Sequence record: MZ826699.1
Strand: one strand, 5' to 3'
DNA length: 50,751 bases
Source of the DNA: Escherichia phage P817
Part shown: piece by piece, positions 1 to 50,751 of the stretch
Layout of the letters: every line of letters begins with the position of its first letter
How positions within the stretch are numbered: the stretch's first letter is position 1
Notes under the pieces: model-generated
What the model saw: only the letters and a program-made list of their open reading frames with translations
Databases searched by the model: none
What the model was told of the DNA's origin: nothing
Position numbers and translations under genes: made by a program

Positions 1-80
1 CCTGCCGTACCTTCACCCTTAAACGTCTTGTTGTAAGAGTCGGTCTTAACGCTTTTTTTACTCATCTGTTTTTCTCCCAA
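1..80 (-). CDS. portal protein, 5' fragment (duplicate of 49385..49464; truncated by window start)
   Basis: Positions 1-1367 match 49385-50751; region corresponds to the first ~26 codons of the portal ORF 48187..49464. Confidence 0.6.
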   Translation of the reverse strand, partial: MGEKQMSKKSVKTDSYNKTFKGEGTA

Positions 81-87
81 TAAAAAA

Positions 88-108
88 GGCTAGGTTGTTA
101 GCCTAGCC
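88..108 (-). terminator. stem-loop GGCTAGG-N7-CCTAGCC with T-run between terL stop and portal start (second copy about 49472..49492)
   Basis: Perfect 7-bp inverted repeat; rc of A6 at 82-87 gives a U-tract on the minus strand. Confidence 0.35.
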
Positions 109-116
109 ATTATACA

Positions 117-1703
117 TTATTTGCGCATTCCCGCTAATCGTTTCATTCGTGCTACCGGATCATCAAGCAAGTTCATTTCGAAGTTGCCAGCATCAACAAC
201 GTTATCCACGATGTCGTCGTGAGGATGGCTATCGTCAAAGGTGAAGCCGACCAGTTCCGCTTCCATTTCAGTAAGCATTGGGTGTGATTCAGGAAACACG
301 ATTCGCCCTGCTTTCATGATTGGTGCTGCGTCCATTGCACGCGTAACTTTATCGGTATCTCGCTGCACTGGCGTGATGTCAATCGGAAGCTTCTTGTTGA
401 TTGACTGAATCAGGCCCGTACCGCTCGCCTTGTCTTCAATGTAAACCTTGCGTAGTGACGTCTTGTTCTCCTTCGCCCACTTGAAGCAGTTTCCGTAAAA
501 GTTAAGAGCCATCGTTTCAAGGTCCGGCGCTTCCCACTTACCGCGAATGCCGTCTATGAAATATACGCGATCCTTATACTTGCCCCACAAAACAAAGACG
601 CTGTAGTCGTGTATTTCCTCTGCCTTCTGCGCTGTATCCGCAGTGGTGAACAGGTATTCGAAGCGATCCGGTTTTGGCATGTTGGCTTTTTCGCCGTCGC
701 CGTAATACTGGAACCAGTCAGACTTAAACGCGTTACCACCAAGCGCGATGGGCTTCTGCTGATACTGTGATTCAAACGTGTAAAGGTCAGCTTCGCGCAA
801 CGCCAGCAGGCTCTCCGCGCTCTCCTTTGCAGGCCAGAAAGAGAAGTGCTCAACCCCGTCAATCATTACAGATGGAGAGGATAGCACGTCTCTGTCAAAT
901 TCCTCTTTCAACCAGTCAGGAAGCGTGTCTCTGTATTCCTCAGTTACCAGCGCCGGAATGATTACCTGCTCAAACTTCATGCCACCCATACCGCCATTCA
1001 TCAGGAACCACGTCGAGTCGTTAACGTGCAGTCGCTGCTGCACAACAACGCATGGCGTTCTGTCAGTCATACGACGTGATCGCACGGTGTTTTTTAGCAG
1101 TGTATGAGCCGCCTTGCGCTTAACGGACGAATACATGTCTTTCGGTTTGTCGGGGTCATCAAGCGTTAACATTCCGGTAAAGCTCCAGGGTTTACTGGGG
1201 TCTTCCATGTACCCGCCACGCTTACCAGTTACCTGGCCGCCGATCGCACGTGATGTTAACGTCAGCCACGCCTTATCGTTATCGTTAAGTGCGGTAATAT
1301 CGCCACCGGACGCCTTAGCAAGTTTGGTAGGCCATAGCTCCTGGAACTCATCGCAACCGATAATCTCACGCGTCCTGATCCCGTTATCCTTCACCAGACT
1401 GTCAGAGAACGAAAGGTTAAGATTTCGAACCTTCGGACTCTTTAACATTCCGTAAACTGGCATGTGGATAGAGAAGATCTCAGTCTTACCGGAGCCTGGC
1501 GTGATGTTGAATATCACGTTCTGCGCCTCGCCTTTGATGATCTGCTCAACCTTCCAGCAAAGGTAAGTGAAGTGCCAGTTGCTTTGGAACTTCTGAGCCT
1601 GCCCGATCTGGAACCAGATTCTCAACATCTTTTCGAATGACTGCTCAGATAGCGCCTTTATTGCCTGCTTTCTTGCAAGGTCGAGATCTTCCCACTGGAT
1701 CAT
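117..1703 (-). CDS. terL: terminase large subunit
   Basis: 528-aa ORF; P-loop-like NITPGSGKTE; sits between a small-terminase-sized ORF and the portal at the head of the structural operon. Confidence 0.8.
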   Translation of the reverse strand: MIQWEDLDLARKQAIKALSEQSFEKMLRIWFQIGQAQKFQSNWHFTYLCWKVEQIIKGEAQNVIFNITPGSGKTEIFSIHMPVYGMLKSPKVRNLNLSFSDSLVKDNGIRTREIIGCDEFQELWPTKLAKASGGDITALNDNDKAWLTLTSRAIGGQVTGKRGGYMEDPSKPWSFTGMLTLDDPDKPKDMYSSVKRKAAHTLLKNTVRSRRMTDRTPCVVVQQRLHVNDSTWFLMNGGMGGMKFEQVIIPALVTEEYRDTLPDWLKEEFDRDVLSSPSVMIDGVEHFSFWPAKESAESLLALREADLYTFESQYQQKPIALGGNAFKSDWFQYYGDGEKANMPKPDRFEYLFTTADTAQKAEEIHDYSVFVLWGKYKDRVYFIDGIRGKWEAPDLETMALNFYGNCFKWAKENKTSLRKVYIEDKASGTGLIQSINKKLPIDITPVQRDTDKVTRAMDAAPIMKAGRIVFPESHPMLTEMEAELVGFTFDDSHPHDDIVDNVVDAGNFEMNLLDDPVARMKRLAGMRK

Positions 1704-4272: not shown

Positions 4273-4429
4273 AAGCACCCCTTTTGTTTTCAGATTGTGG
4301 CGGTAGAGCTGCATAACATGCCCATTGTGATGATTGCTTGATGGATACTCTTTCATATCGCTTTCCTCTCGTTTGGTGTGAACTAACTATAACAAAACCC
4401 GCCGGAGCGGGTTTAGCAATTCGTGCTAT

Positions 4430-5047
4430 TTACCAAGGAATATCATCGGCCCACTCGTCGATTGCAGGACGGATACCACAGGCGCGAACAACCGCCAGGA
4501 CGCCACCTTCAATATCACCATTCACAAGATGCACGTCATGCTCGTTATATTTCTTGTAATCAGAAAAATGCGATTCCTTTATGCGAATGTAATCACGGCT
4601 ATCTCCCGCGAATGTCTTGCCATCCATGAACAGGCGGACCAGGGTAACATCGTGACCATCTTCAACGAGCCTGATCACTTCATCGGGGAATCCGCCATCA
4701 GTACACACAAAGCTGAATCCTTCATCACACAGTCGGATATGTTCACTCATCAGCTTACCGAATTGCTGATTGCCAAAGAGTGGCTTAACTACCGTCTCGC
4801 TAATCCAGATCATGAACTCACGGCAGGTCTTGCCACCAAGAAAGCTCTGAGGCTGTTCTTTCTGATCTCGGTCATCGTATGCAGTGATGAACTTTGAGAA
4901 ATCTCTGGCACCAAGGATGGATGCTGCAATCTCAAACATCGGACGCTTGAAGCTGGTCGGGATGCAATTGTAATCTGCTGCCAGTGCATTGCCGATCGTG
5001 TCTTTACCTACGGCAGCAGGGCCGTTTAGAATGATAATCTTTGACAT
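4430..5047 (-). CDS. P-loop kinase, polynucleotide 5'-kinase-like
   Basis: Walker A LNGPAAVGKDT at N-terminus (start taken at MSKIIIL with RBS AGGAAT); adjacent to HAD phosphatase gene. Confidence 0.55.
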   Translation of the reverse strand: MSKIIILNGPAAVGKDTIGNALAADYNCIPTSFKRPMFEIAASILGARDFSKFITAYDDRDQKEQPQSFLGGKTCREFMIWISETVVKPLFGNQQFGKLMSEHIRLCDEGFSFVCTDGGFPDEVIRLVEDGHDVTLVRLFMDGKTFAGDSRDYIRIKESHFSDYKKYNEHDVHLVNGDIEGGVLAVVRACGIRPAIDEWADDIPW

Positions 5048-5096
5048 TTTGATATTCCTGAGTAGTGGGCGCAATGTGCGCCCGTTAAGTTTATTT

Positions 5097-5714
5097 TTAT
5101 TTACCGCTTACGAGATTGCATTTTTTGCACTGGCGAACACCATGCGGAGGTAGCGGATCGCTAAATTCGTGCTCGCAAACTTTCTCTACGCCGTGAGACT
5201 TAAGGCCGGAGTGCACGCTGTCTCCATAGTCACACACCTGATAGGTAGTGATGCCGAGGCTTCGGAAGTGCGCGATAACGTTAGGACTATCATCAAAGGC
5301 CGCGGTGATGCGGTGCAAGCCAATGTATCGTAAAAATTCTTCCTTGATGATCGTATCCTTGCGATTGTCATCAGCCTGGCGCATGACAAGAACGTTGTAT
5401 TTAGCGCCAGCATCATACAGCCATTGCGTTGATTCTTCAACAACTGCATCCGATCGACCAGTAAGTACGATGATGAAAGCGCCGGAAGCGAACAGGCCAT
5501 TCATTACGTCAATCGTTTCCTGGAATGGCGTGTCGAACTTGCTAAGAGAGTTAAATTCAAGCCACGACTCGGTGAGGTGTAAATCCTTGGTCGGCAGCTT
5601 ATGCAGGCGGTGAGTTCCGTCTGACAGAGTGCCATCGTAATCAAAGATGTAAACTTTCTTGTTTACTGCTACCGTTTCAAGGTGATGCTTAATCATGGTG
5701 TAAAGCTGGTTCAT
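5097..5714 (-). CDS. HAD-superfamily phosphatase, polynucleotide 3'-phosphatase-like
   Basis: HAD motif I FDYDGTL near N-terminus; 205 aa. Confidence 0.6.
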   Translation of the reverse strand: MNQLYTMIKHHLETVAVNKKVYIFDYDGTLSDGTHRLHKLPTKDLHLTESWLEFNSLSKFDTPFQETIDVMNGLFASGAFIIVLTGRSDAVVEESTQWLYDAGAKYNVLVMRQADDNRKDTIIKEEFLRYIGLHRITAAFDDSPNVIAHFRSLGITTYQVCDYGDSVHSGLKSHGVEKVCEHEFSDPLPPHGVRQCKKCNLVSGK

Positions 5715-9715: not shown

Positions 9716-10279
9716 CTATTCACCGTTCAGGAGTGATTTAGCTTTCCGATAAAACTCGACAGCCTTTCTGACCTCATCTGCATCATAGCCATGAATCATG
9801 TCTGAGCTTGCCTGCAATTTGCTATGAGATTTGCGCTCAACCGATCTCCATGGGTCGCACCACTTGTGAATGTCTCTCCCATACATGCCCACCAGGTATG
9901 GATGTGCATATATCTTGTCACCAATAAGGCAAATGATTCCCGCGTCCTGTAGTGATGGTAGGATGTTGTCAATCAGGTTATTCATTACTCCATTACGCTC
10001 GACGAACGGCTGGACCTTTCTGATCGCCTCATATGTTGAGCGAACTCCCACAACGCCTTTTCCATTTGTCGCTTGCTTCCAGATCTTTTCAACCACGACG
10101 CATTGTTCACGATTTAGGTTTGCGCGACGCATAACTTCCACTTCGCACCAGTACTTTTGTGACTGTCGGTATCCGTTAGCATTGATTGCAACTCGTAGTG
10201 GTTCAAGCCCATCTTCCGTAGCAATCTCCATAATCTGCTCATCCGTCAATTTGTCCTCGTTGAAGTCAAACATCCCCAT
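9716..10279 (-). CDS. domain-deleted paralog of the 527-aa P-loop protein (N- and C-terminal segments only)
   Basis: MFDFNEDKL..LRVAINANGYRQSQ and NGKGVVGVRS.YEA.RKV.PF...CLIGDKIY shared with ORF 13772..15355; central P-loop region absent. Confidence 0.55.
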   Translation of the reverse strand: MGMFDFNEDKLTDEQIMEIATEDGLEPLRVAINANGYRQSQKYWCEVEVMRRANLNREQCVVVEKIWKQATNGKGVVGVRSTYEAIRKVQPFVERNGVMNNLIDNILPSLQDAGIICLIGDKIYAHPYLVGMYGRDIHKWCDPWRSVERKSHSKLQASSDMIHGYDADEVRKAVEFYRKAKSLLNGE

Positions 10280-12657: not shown

Positions 12658-12873
12658 GTGCATCAAGATAATTTTCGTGATCGCTATCGTGAAGCTATTG
12701 AGGCCGGACTGAATGAAGATTGGGCGCTCACAGTTTCCTATGGATACGTCGAACTCGACACGGCACTTGGCGAAATGGATATGGACCAGGAAAGCGAAAG
12801 CAACCAGTCAGTAGACGGGATCGGGGATGACTTCGACTACCGCTTAAAATTTGACGACGGAATACCGTTCTAA
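12658..12873 (+). CDS. small acidic protein with SSB-like C-terminal tail (…KFDDGIPF)
   Basis: GTG start 9 nt after GGAG; C-terminus resembles SSB tail DDDIPF. Confidence 0.45.
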   Translation: MHQDNFRDRYREAIEAGLNEDWALTVSYGYVELDTALGEMDMDQESESNQSVDGIGDDFDYRLKFDDGIPF

Positions 12874-13771: not shown

Positions 13772-15355
13772 ATGTTTGATTTCAACGAAGATAAATTGTC
13801 AATCGATCAGGTCATGGCTGTAGCCGCTGCCGATAACCTGCCACCTCTACGCGTAGCAATCAACGCGAACGGGTACAGGCAAAGCCAGTCATTCTGGAAA
13901 TCCCCAACAGAGATTGACTCAGGCGGTGACAAATATCCGGTAATTTCACTTGGTAACGATTATGATGTCGTTGGTAAACTGTCAAGCAATGCCGCTCGTT
14001 CTGTTCAGTTCCCCGAGTCGTCCGCTTACATGCATTTCCTCGGATGCATATCAGCCGCCATGCTGGGCCGATTTACGGTTGAGTATCACGGAACACAACA
14101 GCCTACCGCGCTGTACGTCGTAACCAGTCAGCCGCCATCGACAGGTAAATCAGCCATCAACTCACTTTCGCTGGCCCCGATGATCGCAGAGACTGAACGA
14201 CTCAACGAGATCCGAAAGCGCGACCGCAAGAAGATTATGGCTAAGCTTTCCGCTCTATCCAAGGAGATGAAGCAGGAGAAATCACCGTCTGATATGGCGG
14301 CTCTGTTTGAGGAGAAAGAGGAGCTTGAAGAAAAACTTGAACGACTCTGTGACATCGTTTTCCCCGTATCCGACACCACGCCGGAAGGTCTTGCGCGAAT
14401 CAACAACCGCCAGGGCAACTTTGCAGTTATCTCGGATGAAGCAACGAGCGTGAACTCACTGTTAGGCATGACCTATGGTGACGGCTCAAAGAAAACGAAC
14501 AGCGAGCTTGTGCTTAAGGCGTGGGATGCTGGTAACGTATCTATCGCCCGTGCGAACGCAGACAATAACATGAGCTTCATTGCGATGGGCTGTATATCTG
14601 TAATTGCACAGGATGAAACAATCAACGCGATCATGAATGCTGGTGCGCGTGGTATCGGTGTGTCAGAACGTTTCTTGCTTGTGCGTGAGAAGTCATTCCT
14701 TGGCGAGCGTGTATTCGTTGACGAAAAAGGCGAATCAACATACGAGCCTATTGATGGCGGACTCAAGGCGGACTACTTTCGTCTGGTCCATGAGATCATG
14801 AGCGAACACGAAGTCAACCTGACAGTGAGCACGTCGGCGATGAAATATCTCAACCGTGCGCGTCAGGATATGGAACCTCACCTTGCGGACGGCGGGAAGT
14901 ATTCACACACAATGCTTCGCGGCGCGCTTGGTAAGTTTGATAAGCAGGCTATCAGGATCGCGGCTGTTCTTCACACTGTGCGTAACTGGTTTAATCCCAA
15001 TGGCGGTAGTCCGAAGAAGTCCAGAGAGATTGAGCTTGATACAATGCAGGAAGCGGTAATTATGTTCCAGGAACTGAGTAAGACTTATCTGTCATCTGCA
15101 AACGCTGCTGGTCATGCTGGCGACCATGCGGAGATGAATAAGCTGATCGATATTCTGATCAAGCAAGGTAAGAACGGGAAAGGCGTTGTAGGTGTCCGAT
15201 CCCTATATGAAGCGGCTCGTAAGGTTAAGCCATTCGAGGGCCAGGCTGGCGTAATGACTCGAATCAAAGACCATCTGATCCCTATGCTTGATGAGAAAAA
15301 CTATACGTGCCTGATTGGTGATAAAATTTACATTAATCCGCGACTGCTGGGGTAA
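13772..15355 (+). CDS. putative replication-associated P-loop NTPase
   Basis: 527 aa; Walker A-like QPPSTGKSA and Walker B-like FAVISDEAT in central region; RBS AAGGAG. Confidence 0.55.
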   Translation: MFDFNEDKLSIDQVMAVAAADNLPPLRVAINANGYRQSQSFWKSPTEIDSGGDKYPVISLGNDYDVVGKLSSNAARSVQFPESSAYMHFLGCISAAMLGRFTVEYHGTQQPTALYVVTSQPPSTGKSAINSLSLAPMIAETERLNEIRKRDRKKIMAKLSALSKEMKQEKSPSDMAALFEEKEELEEKLERLCDIVFPVSDTTPEGLARINNRQGNFAVISDEATSVNSLLGMTYGDGSKKTNSELVLKAWDAGNVSIARANADNNMSFIAMGCISVIAQDETINAIMNAGARGIGVSERFLLVREKSFLGERVFVDEKGESTYEPIDGGLKADYFRLVHEIMSEHEVNLTVSTSAMKYLNRARQDMEPHLADGGKYSHTMLRGALGKFDKQAIRIAAVLHTVRNWFNPNGGSPKKSREIELDTMQEAVIMFQELSKTYLSSANAAGHAGDHAEMNKLIDILIKQGKNGKGVVGVRSLYEAARKVKPFEGQAGVMTRIKDHLIPMLDEKNYTCLIGDKIYINPRLLG

Positions 15356-17904: not shown

Positions 17905-19047
17905 TCAGATGTCGCTCATTTCAGGACGGTAAACGAAGCGACCGACTTCGCCGAACTCCTTGGAGTAGACAATTACCGCCGCCTGGCGATATGAGCGCCA
18001 ACCGCCGCGCGCCGCATAGGCATCTTTCGCGCCCAACTGACCGTGAACCTCATCAATACCCAGCGTGCCTTCTGTGATCGTCTGGTGATGCCAGTGTCCT
18101 GAGTGAGTGTAAATATATTTGCTCGTCCCGAACTCTTCGCGGAAGTCAGTAGCCATTGCCGCCAGGCGAGTATCAGCTTTTTTCATGGTGTGACCATGAG
18201 TGTACCCAAGCAATGTCTTACCCCACTTGGTACGGTGAAGAATCATAGGAGACGTATCAACCGTTACGCGCACCTCACCTTCAAAGTATGCCGCCATTGC
18301 AGCGCGGAGCCAAATCATACCCGCCTGATCATGGTTCCCTTCAATGATCTGGATTTCGACCTCTTCGTGCTTATCCAGCATTAGCGCTACCGCGCGGCGT
18401 ACGGAACGGATTGCAACGTGAACTAGCTTGGCGTATCGACTATCCTGATCCAGTACGTGACCGCTTGCAGGCGTTACTGCGTCCAGGCCATCAGAGTGAA
18501 GGAAGTCACCGCCGATTAACAGGACTGCTTTCTTAGCCTTCGGAGATACGCCGACAGAATAATCAAAGAAGTTTTTCAGCACTTTCTCTGAGATGTCAGT
18601 GCTGTAGTTCTCACCGCATTCATGCTTGTGTGCCATCGCGCCAATATGAAGATCGAATACCGGATAGAGCGCCAGGAGATTTTCATCGTAGTGAGGTTCG
18701 CCAAGGATAGGCTGAGCTGCCGCGCGTGGTAGTTCATCACAGAATGCTTCAATTGCAGCATCCATCATGGCGGCTAACTTTTCCTTGTCCTGATCGGTCT
18801 TAACCCAGCGCACGACCTCGGAACCGTCAGCGCGAATCATGGTTGACGTGCCTTTAACCTGAAAGCCATCTGGCACGTGTACGCTTACGTGTTTATTCCC
18901 GTGGAACTCACCGCGCTTTGCCAGGCGGCTTGAGCGCTGCTCAACAGTTCGAATGTTCATCCCGTATTCCTGGGCAATCTGGCGGAGTGTTTTACCAGCT
19001 TCGCGCTCAGCAATGAATTGTTCGTCAGTGATTTTTTGAATAGCCAT
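17905..19047 (-). CDS. calcineurin-like metallophosphoesterase with N-terminal HTH
   Basis: Motifs DLHIG, GGDFLH, GNHD, GHxH; N-terminal HTH-like KTLRQIAQEYGMNIRTVEQR. Confidence 0.6.
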   Translation of the reverse strand: MAIQKITDEQFIAEREAGKTLRQIAQEYGMNIRTVEQRSSRLAKRGEFHGNKHVSVHVPDGFQVKGTSTMIRADGSEVVRWVKTDQDKEKLAAMMDAAIEAFCDELPRAAAQPILGEPHYDENLLALYPVFDLHIGAMAHKHECGENYSTDISEKVLKNFFDYSVGVSPKAKKAVLLIGGDFLHSDGLDAVTPASGHVLDQDSRYAKLVHVAIRSVRRAVALMLDKHEEVEIQIIEGNHDQAGMIWLRAAMAAYFEGEVRVTVDTSPMILHRTKWGKTLLGYTHGHTMKKADTRLAAMATDFREEFGTSKYIYTHSGHWHHQTITEGTLGIDEVHGQLGAKDAYAARGGWRSYRQAAVIVYSKEFGEVGRFVYRPEMSDI

Positions 19048-28171: not shown

Positions 28172-28618
28172 TCAGAATGGAATGTCATCATCGAATTGGT
28201 TTTGCTGATTCGGCTGCTGCTGACTTTGCTTTTGCTGTTGAGGCTGCTGCCGCTTCTGATTTTGACTCTGCTGCTGCGCTGGTTCGCGCTGGCTGAATTG
28301 CAACTGAGGTCGGATCATTTCGGCGGTTACATAAACAGTGCCGTCATTACCCTGGCGTGACGCCAAGTGAAGCGTGTCGGCAGAAATTGATACAACCTTA
28401 CCTTCCTGGAACGCTTCATCATACCACTGCATAACGTTTTCTTTTGCGAAGAACGTAGCTCGGTAGTTACTGTAAACCGTCTCATCCTCGCCCTGCTGAT
28501 TGCGAATCTTCATGCGTTCTGAAAGTTCAACGGCGTACATTTTCCAACGACCGTTGTTGTTGCTGCCTTCTTTGGTGTATGGCGCTTTGCGGATCTGACC
28601 AGTGATTACGTGTGGCAT
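28172..28618 (-). CDS. ssb: single-stranded DNA-binding protein
   Basis: Gln-rich linker and canonical acidic tail FDDDIPF. Confidence 0.85.
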   Translation of the reverse strand: MPHVITGQIRKAPYTKEGSNNNGRWKMYAVELSERMKIRNQQGEDETVYSNYRATFFAKENVMQWYDEAFQEGKVVSISADTLHLASRQGNDGTVYVTAEMIRPQLQFSQREPAQQQSQNQKRQQPQQQKQSQQQPNQQNQFDDDIPF

Positions 28619-48186: not shown

Positions 48187-49464
48187 TTATTCCTCGTTGT
48201 TCACCTGCGGGTTAATTGGTTCGATTTCTTCAAGCTCCGGCGCTGGGCCTTGCATCTTGATAAAGTCTGCGATTGCCTCAAGTGTATCACGCGCTTCGTC
48301 ACGGTCAATAACCTGATCAGCCAACAGCTTTGAAAGCGATTCAACGTTATTCTTCAACGTCTCGGATTGTTCTTTCTCGCTTGGCATTGATAGTGGCTCG
48401 AATCGAACTGACCATTCCTCTTCCTGCACAATCATAGGAATTAACCACTCCAGAAGCGGCCTGTAATACTCGTTACGCTTGCGGTCAATCATCTTGTAGA
48501 AAGTCTCAAGCGCTGTGTTCTGGCTCGCTGACACGCCGCCTACGTTCTTATTCTTGAGGATGATCTCATGAATCTGCGAGTAGTTGACGATGCGGTCCAT
48601 CTTCTTATCCAGGAAAGCATCAACGCCGCCAATGTCTGAGTTAAGGACGTCGTATTCTTCGTCGGTGGCATCAATGCCAATCGTTCGGCCTACGCCGCTA
48701 TTGTCATCAACCTGAGCTAATCGCAGTCGAGCCGCGTAACGCCCTTCGTCATCGTCGCACAAATCAGCCAGTCCTTTTGCTTTCCATACGCCTTGCTGCT
48801 TACGGCGCAATAGCTGAGTAGCCAGTTCTTCACAGTAGTTGTAGTCCAGGATGGCGTCAATCAAGCCCTTACTCAGCACCGATGCGCCCCAATCGTTATT
48901 CTGCGCGCGAAGTGAGTTAGGTACGCTCTCGCCGCCGTTAACATAGATTCGCGTGTAGTGTACGTCGTATTCCGGTACGCTTCCGCCAGGGTTAATGGTG
49001 TAAATCTTCGGCATACCATAGCGAGGGTTGCGTGCGTTCTTCTCGCGGTCCTTGATGCGGATCTGCTCTTTCTCGTACACTCGGATTGATTCAAGCTGCG
49101 CACCTTCCTTGATTGGTGATGTCAGGAGTCGGTTGTCACGGACGACGGCAACGATAGCGGAACCACCATAAAGCCGCTCCCATGAGAACGCCTCGACAAT
49201 CTGCTTGTTCAGCTTCATGCCATCCCACAAAGATTTGAACGCCTTCTCATCCTTCACCCCGTCCAGGCCGAATCCAGGGAAAACCATTTCCTCTGGAATA
49301 ACATCGACAATTTTCTTAGCCATAGGATCATCAATGTAAAACTGCGTCACATACATCTGATCGTATAGCGATGCAAGCGCGCCGCCTGCCGTACCTTCAC
49401 CCTTAAACGTCTTGTTGTAAGAGTCGGTCTTAACGCTTTTTTTACTCATCTGTTTTTCTCCCAA
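48187..49464 (-). CDS. portal protein (likely ATG start at 49449, MSKKSVK)
   Basis: 425 aa immediately downstream of terL. Confidence 0.7.
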   Translation of the reverse strand: MGEKQMSKKSVKTDSYNKTFKGEGTAGGALASLYDQMYVTQFYIDDPMAKKIVDVIPEEMVFPGFGLDGVKDEKAFKSLWDGMKLNKQIVEAFSWERLYGGSAIVAVVRDNRLLTSPIKEGAQLESIRVYEKEQIRIKDREKNARNPRYGMPKIYTINPGGSVPEYDVHYTRIYVNGGESVPNSLRAQNNDWGASVLSKGLIDAILDYNYCEELATQLLRRKQQGVWKAKGLADLCDDDEGRYAARLRLAQVDDNSGVGRTIGIDATDEEYDVLNSDIGGVDAFLDKKMDRIVNYSQIHEIILKNKNVGGVSASQNTALETFYKMIDRKRNEYYRPLLEWLIPMIVQEEEWSVRFEPLSMPSEKEQSETLKNNVESLSKLLADQVIDRDEARDTLEAIADFIKMQGPAPELEEIEPINPQVNNEE

Positions 49465-50751
49465 TAAAAAAGGCTAGGTTGTTAGCCTAGCCATTATACA
49501 TTATTTGCGCATTCCCGCTAATCGTTTCATTCGTGCTACCGGATCATCAAGCAAGTTCATTTCGAAGTTGCCAGCATCAACAACGTTATCCACGATGTCG
49601 TCGTGAGGATGGCTATCGTCAAAGGTGAAGCCGACCAGTTCCGCTTCCATTTCAGTAAGCATTGGGTGTGATTCAGGAAACACGATTCGCCCTGCTTTCA
49701 TGATTGGTGCTGCGTCCATTGCACGCGTAACTTTATCGGTATCTCGCTGCACTGGCGTGATGTCAATCGGAAGCTTCTTGTTGATTGACTGAATCAGGCC
49801 CGTACCGCTCGCCTTGTCTTCAATGTAAACCTTGCGTAGTGACGTCTTGTTCTCCTTCGCCCACTTGAAGCAGTTTCCGTAAAAGTTAAGAGCCATCGTT
49901 TCAAGGTCCGGCGCTTCCCACTTACCGCGAATGCCGTCTATGAAATATACGCGATCCTTATACTTGCCCCACAAAACAAAGACGCTGTAGTCGTGTATTT
50001 CCTCTGCCTTCTGCGCTGTATCCGCAGTGGTGAACAGGTATTCGAAGCGATCCGGTTTTGGCATGTTGGCTTTTTCGCCGTCGCCGTAATACTGGAACCA
50101 GTCAGACTTAAACGCGTTACCACCAAGCGCGATGGGCTTCTGCTGATACTGTGATTCAAACGTGTAAAGGTCAGCTTCGCGCAACGCCAGCAGGCTCTCC
50201 GCGCTCTCCTTTGCAGGCCAGAAAGAGAAGTGCTCAACCCCGTCAATCATTACAGATGGAGAGGATAGCACGTCTCTGTCAAATTCCTCTTTCAACCAGT
50301 CAGGAAGCGTGTCTCTGTATTCCTCAGTTACCAGCGCCGGAATGATTACCTGCTCAAACTTCATGCCACCCATACCGCCATTCATCAGGAACCACGTCGA
50401 GTCGTTAACGTGCAGTCGCTGCTGCACAACAACGCATGGCGTTCTGTCAGTCATACGACGTGATCGCACGGTGTTTTTTAGCAGTGTATGAGCCGCCTTG
50501 CGCTTAACGGACGAATACATGTCTTTCGGTTTGTCGGGGTCATCAAGCGTTAACATTCCGGTAAAGCTCCAGGGTTTACTGGGGTCTTCCATGTACCCGC
50601 CACGCTTACCAGTTACCTGGCCGCCGATCGCACGTGATGTTAACGTCAGCCACGCCTTATCGTTATCGTTAAGTGCGGTAATATCGCCACCGGACGCCTT
50701 AGCAAGTTTGGTAGGCCATAGCTCCTGGAACTCATCGCAACCGATAATCTC
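49385..50751. repeat. 1367-bp terminal duplication of positions 1..1367
   Basis: Direct sequence identity at both window ends. Confidence 0.85.
49501..50751 (-). CDS. terL: terminase large subunit, second copy, 3' portion (truncated by window end)
   Basis: Identical to 117..1367. Confidence 0.7.
   Translation of the reverse strand, partial: EIIGCDEFQELWPTKLAKASGGDITALNDNDKAWLTLTSRAIGGQVTGKRGGYMEDPSKPWSFTGMLTLDDPDKPKDMYSSVKRKAAHTLLKNTVRSRRMTDRTPCVVVQQRLHVNDSTWFLMNGGMGGMKFEQVIIPALVTEEYRDTLPDWLKEEFDRDVLSSPSVMIDGVEHFSFWPAKESAESLLALREADLYTFESQYQQKPIALGGNAFKSDWFQYYGDGEKANMPKPDRFEYLFTTADTAQKAEEIHDYSVFVLWGKYKDRVYFIDGIRGKWEAPDLETMALNFYGNCFKWAKENKTSLRKVYIEDKASGTGLIQSINKKLPIDITPVQRDTDKVTRAMDAAPIMKAGRIVFPESHPMLTEMEAELVGFTFDDSHPHDDIVDNVVDAGNFEMNLLDDPVARMKRLAGMRK

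Follow-up and report, generated by a model that had tools for sequence, protein, structure and literature searches.

A predicted PNKP-type phosphatase gene coupled to a gp1/Dnk-family kinase gene in the T1-like Escherichia phage P817

The phosphatase and kinase genes of phage P817

The window analysed in this study is the whole sequence record MZ826699.1 of Escherichia phage P817, 50,751 nt in length. As shown in Table 1, it carries two adjoining genes on the minus strand, one encoding a stand-alone phosphatase of the HAD type and the other a P-loop kinase. A sequence-only reading of this DNA had compared the two products with the 3′-phosphatase and 5′-kinase halves of the T4 polynucleotide kinase-phosphatase (Pnkp), made as separate polypeptides in reversed gene order. 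Both open reading frames (ORFs) and both motifs on which that comparison was built are real and lie on the minus strand. Neither is a chance ORF, because each has hundreds to thousands of homologues. The order is indeed reversed relative to T4 Pnkp, since transcription runs through the HAD gene first, then a 49-nt spacer and then the kinase gene. The kinase reading frame mechanically extends to a TTG at 5074. The ATG at 5047 was taken as the real start because more than 100 homologues begin at the same MSKIIILN/MAKIIILN. A terminator-like hairpin followed by a T-run lies directly past the kinase stop codon, and the annotation of phage ETEP102 has a terminator at the corresponding place.

Table 1. 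Features of the phosphatase-kinase locus and of related regions. Positions are those of the window unless a locus handle (L) is given.
Feature	Position	Strand	Description or basis
Stand-alone PNKP-type HAD phosphatase gene	5097..5714	-	205 aa
DxDGT motif I of the HAD protein (FDYDGTL, residues 24-30)	5628..5642	-	D25 predicted nucleophile, D27 predicted general acid/base; alignment to T4 Pnkp D165/D167
CxH...CxxC tail of the HAD protein (C180, H182, C196, C199)	5118..5177	-	0, 1 or 2 copies among homologues (alignment)
Spacer between HAD and kinase genes, 49 nt	5048..5096	-	11-bp inverted repeat at 5063..5087; seen in sequence, hairpin from plus-strand scan
P-loop kinase gene, T4 gp1 / T5 Dnk (dNMP kinase) family	4430..5047	-	205 aa from ATG
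Walker A / P-loop GPAAVGKDT ('GKDT' variant), residues 9-17	4997..5023	-	K15 and D16 invariant; T17 in 56/62
Acidic C-terminal tail of the kinase, DEWADDIPW, SSB C-terminal tip-like	4433..4459	-	Kinase homologue comparison
Terminator-like hairpin and T-run	4395..4414	-	Consensus scan
T4 Stp homologue, 30 aa	4267..4356	-	PHROG_6763, 6.7e-14
Helix-turn-helix (HTH) + metallophosphoesterase-like 'DNA repair exonuclease' (phrog_704)	17905..19047	-	PHROG_704, 1.3e-152
Phage SSB with SSB-tip-like tail	28172..28618	-	
71-aa PHROG_9085 protein with SSB-tip-like tail	12658..12873	+	
187-aa ORF	9716..10279	-	C-terminal part of PHROG_2373 / DUF3987
Full PHROG_2373 'DNA helicase' / DUF3987 gene	13772..15355	+	
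Identical ends, 1,367 nt	1..1367 and 49385..50751		
363-aa ORF	49501..50592		Truncated duplicate reading of TerL
phrog_704-type genes elsewhere	L006 2389..3519; L004 3932..4939; L170 9340..10500		
Loci with kinase-ligase cassettes			L071, L072, L080-L082, L085; L073-L076, L078, L079, L083, L087; L004
T5 dnk and following genes	L089 12767..14246		

The HAD protein matched the Pfam family HAD_PNKP (PF25109) with 66.2 bits (E 4.4e-18; curated cut-off 27.6 bits) over profile positions 2-139 of 143, and it also matched PHROG_415, 'polynucleotide kinase'. NCBIfam gave nothing useful for either the HAD protein or the kinase. A sequence search of the PDB reached the T4 Pnkp phosphatase domain and Capnocytophaga Pnkp1, the latter (4xrp) being the nearest sequence at 30% identity. 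Fold comparison likewise placed the HAD protein nearest to solved Pnkp phosphatase domains. The catalytic residues of the T4 phosphatase are D165 and D167 (Asp nucleophile and general acid/base), S211, K258 and D278 (PMC3592404). These align to D25, D27, T85, K124 and D142 of the HAD protein, and T4 R213, D254 and D277 align to R87, D120 and D141. In this comparison T4 S211, K258 and D278, together with R213, D254 and D277, were taken as transition-state and Mg2+ ligands. All eight aligned residues are invariant in the family (28/28 members). These results indicate that the product is a PNKP-type phosphatase with a predicted intact active site, rather than a generic nucleotidase. Its CxH...CxxC tail is possibly a small zinc ribbon; AlphaFold2 confidence was low over this region (pLDDT 40-67).

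The kinase proved to be of another kind. It matched PHROG_139, 'deoxynucleoside monophosphate kinase', over residues 1-186 (7.8e-43), and an exhaustive profile search collected 3,793 representatives of its family. Profile alignments were made with hhalign from an alignment of 62 representatives. A low-diversity alignment was uninformative, as only the P-loop aligned to both T4 gp1 and Pnkp. With the 62-member alignment, the family aligned to T4 gp1 over 176 columns (E 1.9e-6) and to T5 Dnk over 61 columns beyond the P-loop (E 8e-9). Alignment to T4 Pnkp or polynucleotide kinase profiles was limited to 25 P-loop columns with either profile. No match to Pfam AAA_33 or PNK was found, Pfam and NCBIfam returning only sub-threshold P-loop signals, and searches of the PDB by phmmer and with a 27-sequence profile gave P-loop noise only. 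Polynucleotide kinase folds ranked low in fold comparison, which placed the kinase with the T4 gp1 / T5 Dnk family. T5 Dnk is a biochemically proven deoxynucleoside monophosphate (dNMP) kinase.

Residue comparison pointed the same way. The GKDT P-loop is common to the P817 kinase, T4 gp1 and T5 Dnk, while T4 Pnkp has GKST. The loop departs from the Pnkp-type GxxGxGKS in that an Asp replaces the Ser/Thr after the Lys, a change shared with gp1 and Dnk. Past strand 2 the sequence reads S-F-K34-x-P, with K34 invariant. We looked for an invariant acidic residue at the place of Pnkp Asp35, the general base, and also for Arg38; none was found in the kinase family, the alignment there being approximate. 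Position 35 of the kinase varies among D, E, A, Q and S, and is R in P817. The dNMP-phosphate ligands of gp1 are K37, R68, R132 and R177 (Table 2 of PMC10653934). Two of them are kept, R68 as kinase R60 and R132 as R76. K37 has no aligned equivalent, the invariant K34 sitting in the same loop. R177 corresponds to the invariant G119, in a DGGF motif where T5 Dnk has TDVRF and gp1 has PDTRQ.

Taken by PHROG match, full-length profile alignment and fold, the kinase is by homology a small enzyme of the gp1/Dnk type; it is not the Pnkp kinase half. The idea of split T4 Pnkp halves was thus borne out for the phosphatase by profile, PDB match, fold and residues, and it failed for the kinase, whose likeness to Pnkp stops at the P-loop and which has no Asp35-type base. 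The sequence-only reading had named its own counter-case, a dNMP or nucleoside kinase beside a generic nucleotidase. Its first half agrees with the dNMP-kinase family assignment; its second half does not agree with what was found for the HAD protein.

Coupling of the two genes and their neighbours

Synteny was examined from both sides, in 80 diverse kinase loci from viral contigs and in 82 HAD loci. A PNKP-type HAD gene lay within 6 kb of the kinase gene in 66/80 kinase loci, always upstream and on the same strand, and abutted or overlapped it in about 30. From the other side, the kinase gene was downstream on the same strand in 76 of the 82 HAD loci, at 60 nt or less in 39 of them; Rtp was the only one of the 82 without any kinase. 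The pair recurs in Klebsiella Webervirus, in K1G-like siphoviruses, in a PY100-like myovirus and in phiKMV-like podoviruses. In TLS and many other Drexlerviridae the two genes are separated by 0.6-2 kb of small ORFs. A HAD gene without a kinase gene occurs in Rtp and PP90, and a kinase gene without a HAD gene occurs in DTL, where the kinase is truncated, and in large phages. Natural HAD-kinase fusion proteins were also found: at least three, in two lineages 37% identical, among the best 150 of the 3,793 kinase-family representatives. One of the fusions was verified on a 60.7-kb phage contig. The two genes are, as the sequence-only reading had supposed, one pair: a probably co-transcribed accessory module, coupled in evolution, that T1-like phages share with several other virulent phages.

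Stand-alone kinase homologues were found in the neighbourhood of nucleotide-metabolism genes. In LAh_9 the order is ribonucleotide reductase, thioredoxin, nucleoside deoxyribosyltransferase and kinase, with overlapping stop and start codons. The homologue of phiWec189 adjoins a ribonucleotide reductase gene, and that of F98 lies near a MazG-like gene. The stand-alone homologues of large phages carry every invariant of the kinase family, DGGF included. We had considered the Arg-to-Gly change in the DxR motif as a mark of neofunctionalised HAD-coupled kinases; this idea was rejected because stand-alone homologues in nucleotide-metabolism contexts carry the same motif.

The commonest third partner of the pair across phage families is a gene of the phrog_704 type. 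Its homologue lies directly upstream of the HAD and kinase genes in 27/80 loci, also in K1G and vB_YenM_22, and directly downstream of the natural fusion. In P817 the phrog_704 gene is unlinked to the pair, 12 kb away. Proteins of this type have an N-terminal HTH, with metallophosphoesterase (Metallophos) and PdeM-like signals that remain sub-threshold, and the metallophosphoesterase protein had no match in the PDB. The metallophosphoesterase gene was also considered as an alternative phosphatase replacing HAD, as in bacterial Pnkp, and this was set aside; it more probably corresponds to the phrog_704 'exonuclease' found beside HAD as well.

In 14/80 kinase loci, on contigs of about 44 kb that include Autographiviridae such as VR702, the kinase gene is adjoined by a gene for an ATP-dependent DNA ligase, which begins within a few nucleotides of the kinase stop codon. 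The cassettes are either exonuclease, HAD, kinase and ligase, or metallophosphoesterase, kinase and ligase. P817 itself has no such gene, as the sequence-only reading had noted: no ligase or nucleotidyltransferase domain was found by Pfam and PHROG scans of all window ORFs of 150 aa or more that had no earlier assignment, a KxDG scan of the window met the motif only in capsid, tail and protease proteins, and no ligase is annotated in the curated relative ETEP102.

A homologue of T4 Stp is encoded 73 nt downstream of the kinase stop codon, past the terminator-like hairpin. It is 75% identical over 24 aa to the annotated stp of RB3, RB18, RB51 and T4, and 87% identical to Rtp rtp6. Stp-like ORFs were seen 1-4 kb from the HAD-kinase pair in about 15/80 loci. 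Stp, named as 'suppressor of three-prime phosphatase', is an anti-restriction peptide that activates the PrrC anticodon nuclease. The genome note on Stevie of 2015 proposed the polynucleotide kinase as an answer to Stp-triggered anticodon nuclease in T1-like phages. The Stp homologue beside the pair fits with this and keeps the anticodon-nuclease theme alive. The T4-style tRNA repair suggested by the sequence-only reading thus gained a neighbour of the right kind. It lacks the sealing step: because the window has no ligase, the phage alone cannot complete such repair, and E. coli is not known to have a 3′-OH/5′-P RNA ligase. No tRNA genes were found in the window.

The kinase ends in an acidic tail resembling the C-terminal tip of single-stranded DNA-binding protein (SSB). 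A [DE]..[IL]PW ending was present in 80/114 close kinase homologues and in only 2/150 diverse representatives, which suggests a clade-specific docking motif for SSB-tail-binding proteins. Two other window proteins have such tails. The phage SSB ends in FDDDIPF, identical to the tip of E. coli SSB, and a 71-aa PHROG_9085 protein ends in ...KFDDGIPF.

The window as a whole represents one coliphage genome, complete and of the T1-like kind (Drexlerviridae), with 85 related phage records at 75-93% identity by megablast. Its two ends are 100% identical over 1,367 nt and cover part of the large terminase (TerL) gene. For this reason the window is taken as one full circularly permuted or terminally redundant genome, with a unique length of about 49,384 bp and an assembly overlap. 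The exactness of that overlap ruled out a second, divergent copy of TerL at the right end, and the 363-aa ORF there is a truncated duplicate reading with no second gene behind it. A C-terminal region of the PHROG_2373 'DNA helicase' / DUF3987 gene appears to be present a second time, as a fragment or a paralogue, because a 187-aa ORF matches that part of the full version.

What the pair may do

The reading that we favour, at about even confidence, is that the 3′-phosphatase and the (d)NMP kinase form a module for the recycling of host DNA, and we infer that it serves phage DNA metabolism while the host chromosome is broken down. The phosphatase would strip blocking 3′-phosphates from DNA (or RNA) fragments and make them digestible by exonucleases; the phrog_704 metallophosphoesterase, a frequent companion of the pair, is one candidate. 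The kinase would turn the released dNMPs into dNDPs for phage DNA synthesis, and its DDIPW tail may dock it onto SSB-tail-binding proteins. Such a module would be akin to the T4 gp1 or T5 Dnk step combined with the phosphatase half of T4 PseT, with no complete PseT. T4 and T5 both have a dNMP kinase gene of their own. Breakdown of host DNA, with reuse of its nucleotides, is known from T1 and TLS, and the annotation of TLS includes the two genes (PMC11447400). A paper of 2026 proposed that the pair of polynucleotide kinase and dNMP kinase genes after an exonuclease extends the replication module and 'enhances nucleotide supply' (PMC13164509).

Recycling was preferred to true end healing because stand-alone kinase homologues with identical invariants sit among nucleotide-metabolism genes. 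Since the catalytic residues are the same in both settings, HAD-coupled and stand-alone kinases probably do not differ in their chemistry, and ribonucleotide reductase would be an odd neighbour for a polynucleotide kinase on its own. The full-length homology to gp1 and Dnk, the GKD-type P-loop and the absence of the general base are further points for a nucleotide kinase. Several observations weigh against the recycling module. The kinase family is without the acceptor-phosphate arginine of gp1 (R177) and T5 Dnk (DVR), and has an invariant Gly instead. The Stp homologue neighbours the pair, and the order of metallophosphoesterase, HAD, kinase and ligase in some Autographiviridae resembles a heal-and-seal set. 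There is no obvious biochemical reason to fuse or translationally couple a dNMP kinase with a polynucleotide 3′-phosphatase. Across biology, kinase-phosphatase coupling is a hallmark of 5′-kinase/3′-phosphatase end healing. No enzyme assay was found in the literature for any member of the family.

A true split end-healing enzyme is a possible but rather unlikely alternative. A gp1-fold kinase would have been recruited as a polynucleotide 5′-OH kinase, acting with the PNKP-type 3′-phosphatase on 3′-P/5′-OH breaks. Breaks in DNA would be sealed by LigA of the host, or by a phage ligase in those phages that have one, and tRNA cut by Stp-activated PrrC by some other ligase. The constancy of order and strand from both the kinase and the HAD side, the abutting or overlapping genes, the fusions in two lineages and the cassettes ending in a DNA ligase all speak for it, as do the loss of the NMP-kinase acceptor arginine, the nearness of stp, the earlier proposal in the Stevie note, and the SSB-tip-like tail, which suggests work at DNA. 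It is opposed by the kinase itself, which has no homology to any polynucleotide kinase past the P-loop, ranks low against such folds and has a variable position 35 after the invariant K34 in place of a conserved general base. The Arg-to-Gly change is uncorrelated with HAD coupling, as the homologues beside ribonucleotide reductase and nucleoside deoxyribosyltransferase genes have identical invariants. Further points against it are the lack of a ligase in the window and of a known RNA ligase in E. coli, the occurrence of HAD without kinase in Rtp and PP90, and the terminator-like hairpin between the kinase gene and stp. In its widest form, the gp1-fold kinase, the PNKP-type HAD protein and the HTH-metallophosphoesterase, with DNA ligase where present, would be an unrecognised, non-orthologous heal-and-seal repair cassette spread across T1-like, K1G-like, PY100-like and phiKMV-like phages, linked here to Stp and perhaps directed against nuclease-based defence; we consider this unlikely.

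It is improbable that the two genes are accessory early or DNA-metabolism genes that travel together and do separate jobs. The kinase would then be an ordinary dNMP kinase, and the HAD protein would work by itself, for instance on 2′,3′-cyclic-phosphate or 3′-phosphate RNA ends made by host RNase toxins, or as a nucleotidase. That each gene is found without the other (HAD only in Rtp and PP90, a truncated kinase only in DTL, kinase only in large phages), and that small ORFs lie between them in TLS and many Drexlerviridae, would be as expected. However, if no functional link existed, it would be difficult to account for an order and strand that stay constant in Drexlerviridae, Kagunavirus, PY100-like myoviruses and Autographiviridae, for overlapping stop and start codons, and for gene fusions. 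A direct link would arise if the pair acted on a small phosphorylated nucleotide, for example nucleoside 3′,5′-bisphosphates or a 3′- or 2′,3′-cyclic-phosphate nucleotide signal of a defence system, with 3′ dephosphorylation followed by 5′ phosphorylation. The product-to-substrate chain pNp to pN to ppN would explain the fusion of HAD and kinase, the T4 Pnkp phosphatase also accepts mononucleotide 3′-phosphates, and the kinase keeps its nucleotide-kinase features. Nevertheless, this proposal is purely speculative and very improbable: there is no evidence for such a substrate pool in T1 infection, and the HAD protein has, by fold match, no cap domain, a lack that is typical of HAD enzymes acting on macromolecules.

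Relation to known systems and significance

The closest known system to the HAD protein is the C-terminal 3′-phosphatase domain of T4 PseT/Pnkp (PDB 5uj0, 1ltq; PF25109). Unlike the T4 domain, the P817 protein is a separate polypeptide that is not fused to a Pnkp-type kinase, and it has the variable CxH...CxxC tail. Its partner kinase belongs to another family and is encoded downstream instead of at the N-terminus. For the kinase, T4 gp1 (PDB 1DEK) and T5 Dnk are closest. The P817 enzyme is much smaller than gp1, without the insertion of about 50 residues. Its family differs from both in having glycine for the DxR arginine and in the extra invariant residues K34, K88 and R151, and its genes usually come directly behind one for a PNKP-type phosphatase. 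In T5, the two genes immediately behind dnk are annotated as resembling T4 pseT.2 and pseT.3, which are neighbours of pseT in T4. This arrangement is an unexplained echo of a link between a dNMP kinase and the pseT locus.

The phosphatase-then-kinase order of mammalian PNKP is like that of the P817 pair. In some phages a metallophosphoesterase and a ligase join such a pair, which calls to mind the kinase, metallophosphoesterase and ligase-like domains of bacterial Pnkp. However, mammalian PNKP, Pnkp/Hen1 and Pnkp1-Rnl-Hen1 have a PNK-type kinase with an Asp general base, whereas the P817 kinase is of the gp1 type, and in contrast to the bacterial Pnkp/Hen1 systems the window has neither ligase nor Hen1.

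Among the Drexlerviridae, TLS (gp09/gp14), KanT1, ETEP102 and KP36 have a polynucleotide kinase and a dNMP kinase annotated, which are the same two gene families; in ETEP102 a 'putative polynucleotide kinase phosphatase' adjoins a 'putative deoxynucleotide kinase'. The P817 pair is placed in the early region at the left end, with a spacer of only 49 nt and the Stp homologue adjoining, whereas in many relatives its position is close to the lysis genes, behind the DNA repair exonuclease. Both families are thus already known, under the GenBank labels 'polynucleotide kinase(/phosphatase)' and 'dNMP kinase' or 'P-loop NTPase', and the pair and its link to Stp are in the literature. What is new here is that the so-called polynucleotide kinase is predicted to be the phosphatase half only, that the neighbouring kinase is by homology of the gp1 type, that the coupling is strong enough for natural fusion, and that the pair is part of a larger module whose other members are a metallophosphoesterase and, in some phages, a ligase.

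As it stands, the gene pair is an ordinary one, common in phages. The practical value of the analysis is a correction: by homology, the gene widely labelled 'polynucleotide kinase' in T1-like phages encodes only the phosphatase half, and its neighbour is not the missing kinase half. The synteny, the rare fusions and the association with metallophosphoesterase and ligase raise the question of whether the kinase phosphorylates nucleotides or represents a polynucleotide kinase of a new kind. In the latter case, very common coliphages would carry a new end-healing system, which would also be a candidate for an anti-defence module.

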